From Candidatus Curtissbacteria bacterium (GTDB taxonomy: Bacteria; Patescibacteriota; Microgenomatia; Curtissbacterales; GWA2-41-24), in the NCBI GenBank assembly GCA_038326365.1, contig JBBQJY010000003.1:1-52665 (forward strand): a stretch of DNA of 52,665 bases, in the 5' to 3' direction. The notes beneath the pieces are model-generated. The model worked only from the letters and a program-made list of their open reading frames with translations, ran no database searches and had not been told where the DNA came from. A program made the position numbers and the translations under genes. Shown piece by piece: positions 9,040 through 21,699 of this stretch. Numbering within the stretch: the stretch's first letter is position 1; each line of letters starts with the position of its first letter.

Positions 9040-9314
9040 ATTGGTTATGATCTTAACTTCCGCAATCTGCCAAGTAACCCTTCAAACATTTTATCCTGAT
9101 AACTTCTGTTATTGTAACGCCAATCGTATTCGTCAATGTATGCCTGTAGATACTTCTTGCTGACTTTAGTTTCTGTAGAAATATTATCTTTAAGCTGCTT
9201 TATATGCTCCAAACAAGCGTCATCATTCTTGTACTTTTCAGAAAACTACCGAGGCTAATCTTATTTCTCATAGCCTCAGATTCACGTACTTCTGACACGA
9301 TGTAAAGGGATAAG
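8984..9314 (-). mobile_element. Internally deleted IS1595-family element (MITE-like)
   Basis: Imperfect terminal inverted repeats CTTATCCTCTTTAC (8984-8997) and GTAAAGGGATAAG (9302-9314); minus strand 9271-9045 encodes transposase N-terminus (KYKNDDACLEHIKQL) fused to C-terminus (VSKKYLQAYIDEYDWRYNNR), with one frameshift. Confidence 0.8.
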
Positions 9315-9329
9315 TGCCACAATTAGTTG

Positions 9330-9359
9330 TTGACAAGACCCAGAACACAATGGTATAAA
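9330..9359 (+). promoter_or_regulatory. Sigma70-type promoter for rpoBC
   Basis: TTGACA (9330-9335), 18 nt, TGgTATAAA (extended -10, 9351-9359). Confidence 0.7.
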
Positions 9360-9365
9360 TCTCAG

Positions 9366-9536
9366 ACGCATCCTTAACGGGAGGTATTTTGTGTACCTCT
9401 AGTTTTTTGGGTGTTATCAGCTAAATTCCTGTGGGTCATCTCAACTAATAGATTCCCCTCTGCAGCTGCAGAGTCGAGTGGTCCCCATTTGCCCTGGCGC
9501 AAGTACCTGCCGTACATAAATTAGAAAGAAAAACCT
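9366..9536 (+). ncRNA. Candidate structured 5-prime leader or small RNA upstream of rpoB
   Basis: Long-range helix 9377-9389 with 9501-9513, local hairpin 9381-9399 plus T-run, nested helix 9431-9442 with 9476-9488, perfect 16-nt palindrome 9458-9473. Confidence 0.45.
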
Positions 9537-12500
9537 GTGTCTAAAAGAATATCCTGGGGACAATCTAACAACGTAAATTTACCTAATCTTGATTTGGTTA
9601 AGATCCAAAGGGATTCCTTTGCTGATTTTTTGGAAACTAATATTCGTGAAGTTATCGATGAAATTTCGCCTATCGAGGACTTCACCGGCAAGAATTTTGT
9701 TCTAGAACTGGGGAATTATACGTTTGGCAAACCTAAATACACCCCCGAAGAGTGTCTCAAAAAAGGAATCACCTACGATGTACCGCTTAAAGTTGAAGCA
9801 ACAGTAACTAACAAGCAAACTGGCGGCAAAAATTCCCAGGAAGTTTTTCTCTGCGACTTACCGCTGATGTTAGAAAAAGGTTCTTTTATAATCAACGGTA
9901 TTGAGCGAGCTGTAGTAACTCAGCTAGTTCGAGCACCGGGAGTTTACTACTCTGCCGAAATAGATCCGTCCACCGGAAAAACTCTCTACAATTGTGAAAT
10001 CAGGCCTCAGCGAGGTTCTTGGCTCGAGTTTGCAATTACCAAAAATGATCTAATAACTGTCAAAATCGACAGGCGCCGAAAGTTTCCTGTAACCACCTTC
10101 CTCCGAGCAATCGGTTTCGAAAACAATGACGACATTATCAAGCTTCTAGACCCAATTACCGACGAAAATACTCGAGAATTAGTTCAGAACACTCTCCAAA
10201 AAGATTCCACGACAAATCGTGATGAAGCACTTCTAGAAATTTACAGAAGGATGAGGCCCGGCGACCACGTAATTTTAGACAACGCTAAGGCTTTGATAGA
10301 AAACATGTTCTTTAACCCCCGCAGATACTCTTTGGGAGTTGTTGGCAGATACAAAATGCAAAAGCGCTTAAAGACTCTTAAGGAAAAACTTCCCGAAGCA
10401 AAAGACGAAGATGTAAATAGCCAAATTTTAACTTCGGCAGACTTCATAGCATCAATTGGTTACCTTTTTGAACTGATGAAAGGCAACGGCCGCCTAGACG
10501 ATATCGACCACTTGGGTAATCGCCGCCTGAGGCGAGTTGGAGAATTAGTTGCCCAAAATGCATTTCGAATCGGAATTTTGAGACTCGAGCGTGTTATTAA
10601 AGAAAGAATGAGCTTAACCCCTGTCGAAGAGGGAGTTCCCTCGCCATCTGCCTTAATCAACGCCCGCCCAATTATCTCCGCAATTAACGAATTTTTCCGC
10701 TCATCACAGCTTTCTACAATTTTGGACCAAACCAACCCACTTTCCGAACTTGATAATCTTCGTCGTCTAACGGTTATGGGAACCGGTGGAATTGCCCGAG
10801 AACGAGCTGCTTTTTCAATTCGAGATATTAACCACTCTCAGTACTCCAGAATTTGTCCAATTAGATCCCCCGAAGGTCCAAACATCGGCCTTGTTACTTA
10901 TATGGCTCTCTACTGCCGAGTTAACGACTACGGATTCCTGGAGGCCCCTTACAGAAAAGTAGTTAAAGAAATAAACGGCAAAGCCAGGGTAACGGATGAG
11001 ATTGTATATCTGGCAGCTGACGATGAAGAAGAGTTCTATATTACCCATGCCCAAATTCAAATAGACGCGAGGGGCAACATTGCTGAAGATCGTATACCTG
11101 TGCGCTATAAGGGCGAATTCACAACAGCCGAGCAAGGCATGCTCAATTATATAGACGTTGTTCCTAGACAAGTTGTCGGAACGTCTGCCTCTTTAATTCC
11201 CTTCCTCGCCAACGACGAAACTAATCGAGCTCTTATGGGTACTCACATGCAATGCCAAGCTGTACCGCTTATTAAGCCGCAGGCACCAATAGTTGGAACC
11301 GGTATGGAAGAAGTTGTCGGGGTCAATATGGGACGGGCAATTCAAGCACAAGAAGACGGAGAAATAATTTATGTTGATAGTAAAAAAATAATCCTTAAGA
11401 ATAAAAATGAAGAAATAACTATCCCAATTCAAAAATTTGCCAGATCTCCCCAAAGCACCTGTTATTCTCAAAGACCACGCGTTGCAATGGGCGACAAAGT
11501 TAAAAAGGGTGACACACTAATTGACGGCTCTGCAACAGATGATGGTGAACTTTCTTTGGGTCAAAATTTAACCATCGCCTACATGAGCTTCGATGGTCTA
11601 GGCTACGAAGACGCAATCGTTATCTCCGATCGCCTGTCTCGAGATGATGTCTTAACCTCAATTCATATTGAAGAACACGAAACATCAGTTGTAGAGACTA
11701 AACTTGGACCAGAAGAAACAACTCGAGATATCCCCAACGTCTCCGAAGAACAGCTCAAATACCTAGACGAAGATGGAATTGTAGTTGTGGGTGCCGAAGT
11801 TGGCCCCAATGACATCTTGGTTGGCAAAATTGCCCCCAAAGGAGAGACAGAACTCTCAGCAGAAGAAAGACTACTTCGCACAATTTTCGGTGAAAAAGCC
11901 AGAGAAGTTAGGGACACGTCATTGCGAGTTCCCCACGGAGAAAAAGGAACAGTAATTGATATTAAAATTCTTTCCCGAGACAAAGGCGATGAACTGGAGC
12001 ACGGAGCTCTCCAGAAAATAGTCGTCAAAATTGCCCAAATGCGCAAAGTTGTAGTCGGAGATAAAGTCGCAGGCAGGCACGGAAACAAAGGTGTTATCAG
12101 CAAGATTGTTCCAAGCGCTGATATGCCTTATCTTGAAGATGGAACGCCGATTGATATTATCATCAGTCCGCTTTCGGTTCTTTCTCGAATGAACTTAGGT
12201 CAGCTTCTGGAAACCCATTTGGGTTGGGCCGCCGAAAAATTGGGCCACAAAGTAGCATTGCCGGTTTTTGAAAGAGTCCCTGAAGAAAGAATTGTCGAGG
12301 AGCTGAAAAAGGCAGGATTACCAGCAGACGGACGAGCAATTCTTTACGATGGACGCAGTGGTTTGAAATTTGATCGACCGATTGTTGTGGGAAAAGCCTA
12401 CATCCTCAAGCTTATCCACATGGTCGAGGACAAAACGCACGCTCGCTCAACAGGCCCGTACTCCTTAATTACCCAACAGCCACTTGGTGGAAAAGCTCAA

Positions 12501-21674: not shown

Positions 21675-21699
21675 AAAGCTCGCTGCATGCGAGTTTTTT
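21675..21699 (+). terminator. Intrinsic terminator after tuf
   Basis: AAAGCTCGC-tgcat-GCGAGTTTTTT stem-loop with U-tract. Confidence 0.8.

Follow-up and report, generated by a model that had tools for sequence, protein, structure and literature searches.

The window analysed here, a stretch of 52,665 nucleotides from the 0.97-Mb assembly of a Candidatus Curtissbacteria bacterium, carries rpoB with a GTG start codon at 9537, followed in order by rpoC, rpsL, rpsG, a small Gre-like gene and fusA; the transcription unit downstream of the rpoB leader is long, and S10 (NusE) is encoded in it. The leader, 9364-9536 (+), makes up the 170 bases before rpoB. As an earlier note on this DNA had stated, rplKAJL does not stand in front of rpoB: the upstream genes are mltG/yceG and an IS1595 remnant, and rplJ sits on a separate contig (C7), away from rpoB. 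The remnant, a C-terminal DDE fragment of an IS1595-family transposase (9045-9212, -), lies directly upstream of the rpoB promoter, in a place that the end of mltG occupies in most relatives. The good promoter that the same note had seen ahead of the leader is there, with near-consensus elements (Table 1); in an alignment of 29 family genomes TTGACA is invariant and a TGnTATAAT-like -10 element nearly so, and transcription is predicted to start at about 9364-9366.

Table 1. Features of the rpoB promoter and leader, in window coordinates.
Feature	Position	Strand	Details	Basis
Promoter	9330..9359	+	-35 TTGACA 9330-9335, 18-nt spacer, extended -10 TGgTATAAA 9351-9359	sequence
5' single-stranded segment	9364..9375	+	AGACGCAUCCUU; conserved AUCC and P0 5' arm	family alignment
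P1 hairpin	9376..9404	+	core GGAGGUAU/GUACCUCU 9380-87/9393-9400, loop 9388-92, lower stem AAC/GUU 9376-78/9402-04	
U-rich tail	9403..9414	+	UUUUUUGGGUGU; family consensus UUUUUGUUGUG, class consensus UUUGUUUGU	
CCUGUG box and 5' strands of P2 and P2b	9428..9442	+	P2 5' strand GGGUCA 9433-38, bulged U9439, P2b 5' strand CUC 9440-42	
Asymmetric internal loop	9443..9457	+	AACUAAUAGAUUCCC (15 nt); family consensus AACAACUAGAUUUAAA or UCAACUUGAUUUAA	
P3 hairpin	9458..9473	+	perfect palindrome CUCUGC-AGCU-GCAGAG	
3' strands of P2b and P2	9476..9484	+	P2b GAG 9476-78, P2 UGGUCC 9479-84	
Proposed long-range partner	9501..9513	+	AAGUACCUGCCGU; contains CUGCC box 9507-11	
Shine-Dalgarno-like element and rpoB start codon	9521..9539	+	UUAGAAAG 9521-28; GUG 9537-39	

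Every structural element listed in the earlier note was found in its place, which confirms the observation itself. The local terminator-like hairpin, P1, is formed by GGAGGTAT/GTACCTCT (9380-9387/9393-9400), followed by AG and T6 (9403-9408), and is flagged by a terminator scan; it has eight perfect pairs plus the lower stem, and its energy in this sequence is -11.9 kcal/mol. The small competing hairpin upstream of it, P0, is possible through pairing of 9371-74 with 9379-82 (-2.6 kcal/mol), and the nested helix and the perfect palindrome farther downstream are both exact. P1 and its tail have the anatomy of a terminator, a stable hairpin and a U-rich tract on the transcribed strand, set between a promoter and rpoB. 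Under a lax pattern, a hairpin followed by a T-run occurs at 384 sites in this AT-rich genome, and 26 such sites follow stop codons against 15 in the control, a weak enrichment from a pattern too lax to decide. Because the pattern is this common and only weakly enriched after gene ends, terminator shape says little here about termination, and we rest the case for the leader on conservation and covariation in relatives rather than on the fold of a single sequence.

A blastn search with the leader as query matched its 5' half in front of rpoB in three further genera. Our family sample comprised the rpoB upstream regions of 29 of the 32 species genomes, all of which share TTGACA, the extended -10 element, the AUCC segment, P0/P1 and the tail UUUUUGUUGUG, together with the box CCUGUGGAUCAUCCC, the loop motif AACAACUAGAUUUAAA or UCAACUUGAUUUAA and a P2 3' closing strand of the form GGG-n-GAUCC; a variable hairpin at the P3 position also belongs to the common plan of these leaders. 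We searched 401 genomes of the class with a full-leader covariance model (R1). It matched 26 of the 27 sampled family genomes, 25 of them exactly once; in another (G023) an insertion splits the match into two adjacent partial ones within the rpoB leader. Wherever the coordinates of both are listed, the match lies just upstream of rpoB. The approximately 374 other genomes of the class held no true R1 match, and the lone match outside the family falls within a coding region on a contig different from that of rpoB. On metagenome contigs, every rpoB at 73% identity or above carries the leader by R1, as does fragment L250, whose rpoB match is just 54 residues long at 67% identity; no other metagenome rpoB locus below 73% has it. 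Gathering the rpoB upstream regions of relatives, the check that the earlier note had proposed, reveals a leader conserved in sequence and structure, present once per genome and always before rpoB.

Covariation was assessed on a model-based alignment of 71 leaders, 52 of them distinct. In this alignment 88.3% of cells are paired, as against 81.2% in shuffles, and double-sided change occurs in 12 of the 18 pairs and in 57 cells; on each of five measures all 500 shuffles stayed below the real alignment, and pairing dropped to 46-59% in controls with a slid partner. All five modelled P2 pairs (9433-37 with 9480-84) change on both sides, giving variants such as GGCGC/GCGCU, GGAC/GUCC, GGAUA/UAUCC, GGGU/ACCC and AGAGC/GCUCU. 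Both modelled P2b pairs covary as well (CUC/GAG here, ACC/GGU and UUCA/UGAA elsewhere), as do the three lower pairs of P1 (for example, CAAG/CUUG versus AGAU/AUCU). P3 keeps its place but varies in sequence: most relatives have a hairpin of differing sequence and length there. These data support pairing in P1, P2 and P2b, and the G-U pairs in P1 and in P2 (for P2, G9435-U9482 and U9436-G9481) point to an RNA of the + strand only.

Across leaders, the P1 stem has 8-12 bp and a median energy of about -12.4 to -12.7 kcal/mol, and the 9 nt that follow it contain a median of 6 U residues against a U background of 33%; the family consensus is CAAGGGGGUA-loop-UACCUUCUUG with the tail UUUUUGUUGUG. P0 can form in 53 of 53 leaders, at -1.4 to -6.4 kcal/mol, and is weak (median z = -0.85 versus shuffles). 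In genus g17 and in G022 its arms read CCCAU/AUGGG instead of CCUU/AAGG; few lineages show a clear compensatory change. P0 overlaps the P1 5' arm and is the sole conserved competitor of P1.

The P2/P2b/P3 domain varies more in its layout. In genus g2 the loop motif forms the terminal loop of P2b and P3 is missing, while the sister family f2 has a similar loop, a CAACUUGUUUUAA hairpin loop. The domain lies at a variable distance, 50-150 nt, from the start codon, which argues against simple masking of the ribosome-binding site. Its asymmetric loop is conserved, but the domain is placed after the terminator-like hairpin, and no known riboswitch class was matched. Several leaders carry insertions of 40-90 nt (L031/L205-L208 in G014, L023/L183 in G009, L034 in G013, L039 in G023, and L189), some of them GC-rich hairpins; these fall between P1 and P2 or inside the P2 loop, which marks both places as tolerant spots of the leader.

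P1 reaches well beyond this family. In sister and distant families, a consensus promoter is followed by (A/G)G(A/G)CGUAC-loop-GUACGUCU and then by UUUGUUUGU or UUUUUGUGU. An alignment of 30 sequences across the class has the P1 stem 88.5% paired; the apical GUAC...GUAC is conserved in sequence and the lower stem covaries, the pair directly below the apex being CG in 15 sequences and GC in 13. A model of P1 only (R2), run on the 401 Microgenomatia genomes, matched 95, nearly always once each, and in 37 of 40 checked genomes from outside Curtissbacteria the match lies 50-250 nt upstream of rpoB on the same strand. Family f30 (G316, G130) has a hairpin with a GUUCAUU loop, and both of its R2 matches lie approximately 60-100 nt upstream of rpoB. 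As a control, we ran R2 at E ≤ 0.01 on about 360 genomes from other classes of the phylum: 17 were matched, and in none of the 16 with a detectable rpoB was the match near that gene. These results identify P1 and its tail as an rpoB-specific leader element of class Microgenomatia. Judged by this distribution, P1 is older than the Curtissbacteria family and the P2/P2b/P3 domain is a Curtissbacteria elaboration, although the CAACUUGUUUUAA loop of f2 and the GGAAUCAUCCAACA box of Woykebacteria-like leaders suggest that its origins go back further.

In those Woykebacteria-like leaders the GGAAUCAUCCAACA box adjoins the AUG. Metagenome contigs of this kind (L228-L243) have a conserved (U)AGGAAUCAUCCAACA(U/C)AAGG box 5-30 nt before the rpoB AUG; its UCAUC can pair with GAUGG, AUG included, and the box resembles the Curtissbacteria P2 5' strand GGAUCAUCCCAACA.

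The region around the rpoB start has features of its own. GUG is the start codon in 53 of 58 Curtissbacteria leaders, and ATG in 24 of 26 leaders from other families. GGAGG is absent before rpoB; a subclade that includes this genome has UUAGAAAG 8-12 nt upstream of the start, which is complementary to the distal 16S tail CUUUCUAA (16S 3' end on contig C2), and AGAAAG is found in 16 of 58 leaders where 0.4 would be expected. Between the structured domain and the ribosome-binding site lies a CUGC(C/U) box that rpoB leaders across the class have more often than expected: counted between P2 and the start, 27 of 58 Curtissbacteria leaders contain it against 5.3 expected, as do 11 of 26 leaders from other families against 2.1; relatives that carry it include L185, L189, L195 and L228-L237. 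A search for a pairing partner of this box found none.

We read 9364-9536 as a cis-acting rpoB leader that combines an attenuator at P1 with a Curtissbacteria-specific domain for binding a partner, and assign this reading a probability of about 0.6. An attenuator or autoregulatory leader is the best reading because a terminator-like hairpin is accompanied by a small competing hairpin upstream. The earlier note had arrived at the same kind of leader; the conserved structured leader and both hairpins bear it out, but the three-way switch that it attached to them is not supported. The leader would head the rpoB-rpoC(-rpsL-rpsG-fusA...) transcript and act on it as a cis-regulatory RNA. In this model the near-consensus promoter would fire constitutively, and P1, located approximately 15 nt into the transcript, would together with its U-rich tail form an attenuator of the intrinsic-terminator type, at which a fraction of polymerases would stop near 9405-9410. 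How many polymerases read through would depend on P0 or on an influence upon P1, such as NusA/NusG-type factors, the speed of polymerase or the supply of NTPs. Transcripts that read through would fold the P2/P2b/P3 domain, and the asymmetric loop of P2 would most likely bind a partner in trans, which would adjust how well the rpoB message, with its GUG start and poor Shine-Dalgarno sequence, is translated or how stable it is. We infer termination at P1, its modulation, and binding to P2/P3 from the conserved architecture; a leaky attenuator is the simplest account and a plausible one, and the leader probably meters polymerase synthesis.

A comparable arrangement exists in the rplKAJL-rpoBC cluster of E. 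coli, where a partial intrinsic terminator (attenuator) between rplL and rpoB has been proposed to meter polymerase synthesis. The leader described here is like it in placing a terminator-shaped hairpin and a U-run directly upstream of rpoB, with presumed metering of beta/beta'; it is unlike it in having its own consensus promoter, no rplJL upstream and no sequence or structure homology, and in its class-wide, sequence-conserved GUAC apex and, in Curtissbacteria, a second structured domain. Leaders of the RAT/terminator kind (BglG/LicT type) have an antiterminator-terminator arrangement. Here, too, the terminator shares part of its 5' arm with a small 5' hairpin, P0, so that only one of the two can form at a time, but P0 has just 3-5 bp and no known binding protein, and no PTS-type antiterminator is implied.

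A search of Rfam, which the earlier note had suggested with 6S, the L10 leader and others in mind, matched no family: 9200-9650 had no match at E ≤ 10, nor was there one at gathering score in the window. The L10 (rplJ) leader, RF00557, was among the families without an Rfam match, and the position is not upstream of rplJ. The loci of eight relatives were likewise unmatched at E ≤ 1, except for a sub-threshold alignment of the G038 leader (L082 2120-2164, -) to Acido-Lenti-1 (RF01687), at 23 bits against a gathering score of 37. That one leader is like Acido-Lenti-1 in its hairpin with a palindromic apex, U/A-rich linker and small hairpin; unlike it, the window and the seven other leaders are unmatched, and RF01687 is listed as not cis-regulatory. 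We regard this as a resemblance only.

Lacto-rpoB (RF01709, PMC2864571) and Rhodo-rpoB (PMC5737381) are lineage-restricted rpoB leader motifs whose mechanism is unexplained, and their authors remarked that the RNAs which regulate polymerase genes may differ among diverse bacteria (PMC2864571, PMC5737381). The present leader is, like them, a lineage-restricted structured RNA found consistently upstream of rpoB; unlike them, it belongs to a different phylum and has an unrelated fold, and neither Rfam model matches the window at E = 10. A literature search returned nothing on rpoB leader RNAs in Patescibacteria, and the existence of a real, previously undescribed structured rpoB leader is strongly supported. 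A third rpoB leader, unrelated to Lacto-rpoB and Rhodo-rpoB, is now defined in the ultra-small Patescibacteria. It consists of two separable modules, an ancient rpoB-specific hairpin-plus-U-tail of Microgenomatia and a well-covarying add-on domain of Curtissbacteria, and is short enough for direct in vitro work. How a constant level of RNA polymerase is maintained in bacteria is, to our knowledge, still poorly explained, E. coli included. Transcription factors are very few in ultra-small Patescibacteria; regulating the core transcription genes through RNA may therefore be a main layer of control in them.

Several other readings of the same elements have to be weighed against an attenuator with a partner-binding domain. 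P1 could be a hairpin bound by a protein (RNA polymerase, sigma, a Nus factor or a ribosomal protein) or an mRNA stabiliser, with control exerted at translation or decay. Its GUAC...GUAC apex is conserved in sequence across many families above a covarying lower stem, its tail retains G residues (UUUGUUUGU, UUUUUGUUGUG) that a U-tract does not need, and in this genome there is no clear sign that gene ends make use of terminator-shaped sites. Since a plain terminator needs no GUAC apex, conservation of the apex hints at specific recognition, and together with the conserved tail G residues the invariant apex suggests recognition beyond plain termination. Yet the U-rich tail right after the stem is kept class-wide, and the hairpin does not sit at the extreme 5' end, unlike classic stabilisers; further, in a mismatch search of the genome's own 16S and 23S rRNA nothing resembled P1, the P2 box or the loop, which leaves ribosomal-protein mimicry without support. 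We consider this reading unlikely, while granting it a fair hearing. It is a good deal more doubtful that the P2 loop, the P1 3' arm or both are Nus-factor sites (boxA/boxC-type) that load a processive antitermination complex for the very long rpoBC-str-S10 unit. The genome's own rrn boxA is UUGUACCUUAACAACUGA. One half of it, UUGUACCUU, is shared with the P1 3' arm of the family consensus, where the window has UGUGUACCUC; the P2 loop of the family resembles the 3' half, with AACAACU(A)GA, and the long downstream operon encodes NusE. But the usual boxA of the family is GCUCUUUAACAAC, so that the first half matches only in G000 and G003; boxA and the rpoB leader of each genome do not co-vary, the proposed site is partly base-paired in P2b, and the shared 7-9-mers could have arisen by chance. 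A boxA pattern search with 3 mismatches returned mostly noise.

The remaining alternatives fare worse. A translated mini-ORF, GUG GGU CAU CUC AAC UAA (9431-9448), might control rpoB by ribosome-dependent attenuation or re-initiation; its family version is GUG GAU CAU CCC AAC AAC UAG. In 43 of the 52 distinct leaders the codon here is GTG or TTG, 23 encode the six-codon VDHPNN, and the CCUGUG context resembles that of the rpoB start. Six aligned leaders, however, have no ATG, GTG or TTG (TTA in three; AAG, CTG and GTT in one each), the start column being misaligned in three further rows, and the length ranges from 3 to more than 30 codons. The GUG lies inside P2 with no Shine-Dalgarno sequence in front, and substitutions show no synonymous-site bias; the changes for which the P2b 3' strand compensates are those at the first position of codon 4, so the constraint is on the RNA. 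We rejected a leader peptide, there being no coding signature, and find control by this mini-ORF very unlikely. The leader, or its P1-terminated 5' part of ~45 nt, could also be a trans-acting small RNA, for example one that mimics an open promoter as 6S RNA does and so sequesters RNA polymerase; a 6S-like rod that mimics an open promoter was the alternative offered in the earlier note. A strong promoter, a conserved single-stranded 5' segment and a terminator hairpin with a U tail do make up small-RNA anatomy, and the P2 loop contains UAGAUU, which is like a -10 element. Against this, no 6S or other Rfam family matched to E = 10, the UUGAUU loop variant lacks the A of the -10-like motif, and occurrence once per genome, only before rpoB, is the signature of a cis element. 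Nor does the 6S-like rod survive comparison: the global rod-like fold is not conserved among relatives, the 5'/3' helix that would close it is found in 8 of 57 leaders, and the 3' end overlaps the rpoB start codon. We judge a small RNA to be highly improbable.

The last reading to be set beside the P1 attenuator is a three-state switch in which 9377-9389 toggles among the terminator hairpin, the 5' hairpin and a helix with 9501-9513 that encloses P2/P3, and thereby regulates rpoB. The long-range pairing that the earlier note had described (9377-89/9501-13) is real in this sequence: 12 of 13 positions pair, at -15.8 kcal/mol (z = -2.7 versus shuffles), which is stronger than P1 (-11.9), and the duplex belongs to the minimum-energy fold (-52.2 kcal/mol, z = -2.3). 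It is not conserved, however. Among 53 distinct relatives it reaches z < -2 in just 2, with a median of -8.9 kcal/mol against -12.4 kcal/mol for P1, and the closest relatives (G015, G009) have unrelated sequence at the position of 9501-13 and no duplex. The conserved feature at 9507-11 is the CUGCC box, not complementarity to P1. Further, 9501-9513 is transcribed approximately 110 nt after the terminator, and so too late to prevent termination. The long-range state is specific to this sequence, and we put the chance of the three-state switch as very low.

Beyond the cis-acting leader with an attenuator at P1, the RNA might act as a direct sensor of the transcription machinery, with polymerase, NusA or NusG reading P1, with its class-wide invariant GUAC apex and a U tail interspersed with G, as a factor-dependent pause site or terminator and the P2 loop binding holoenzyme or a Nus factor; we advance this speculatively, as an improbable but not negligible reading. 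If it were true, the abundance or activity of polymerase would feed back on rpoBC synthesis through one compact RNA, and the leader would offer a minimal and tractable system for studying how RNA polymerase regulates its own synthesis, a problem long unsolved.

Two further pairings were considered and set aside. The 5' end AGACGC (9364-9369) can pair with GUGUCU (9537-9542), the start codon and codon 2, at -9.2 kcal/mol (z = -3.2), and the G007 clade has AGACAC/GUGUCU pairing of up to 8 bp; closure of the leader in this way is significant in the 8 of 57 leaders in which codon 2 is UCU. A pseudoknot between the tail GUUGUG and the loop CAACAAC was rejected on account of GUCG variants, which are uncompensated.

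Hairpins followed by a U-run also occur elsewhere in the genome, at C2:75053-75072 (-), C7:7619-7637 (+), C25:12454-12471 (+), C26:10242-10259 (+) and, in the window, 21677-21695 (+). Such sites precede rpsA (193 nt upstream) and rplJ (27 nt upstream); the sites at these two genes differ in sequence from P1, and we discarded the idea of a regulon of leader terminators. On contig C2 (-), the rrn leader has, about 200 nt upstream of 16S, a hairpin and then UUUUUGUACCUUAACAACUGAAAAG, a variant boxA. Two CCUCCC...GGGAGG hairpins with U7 stand directly before start codons, and the site at 21677-21695 (+) lies approximately 100 nt before a 103-aa ORF in a ribosomal-protein cluster.
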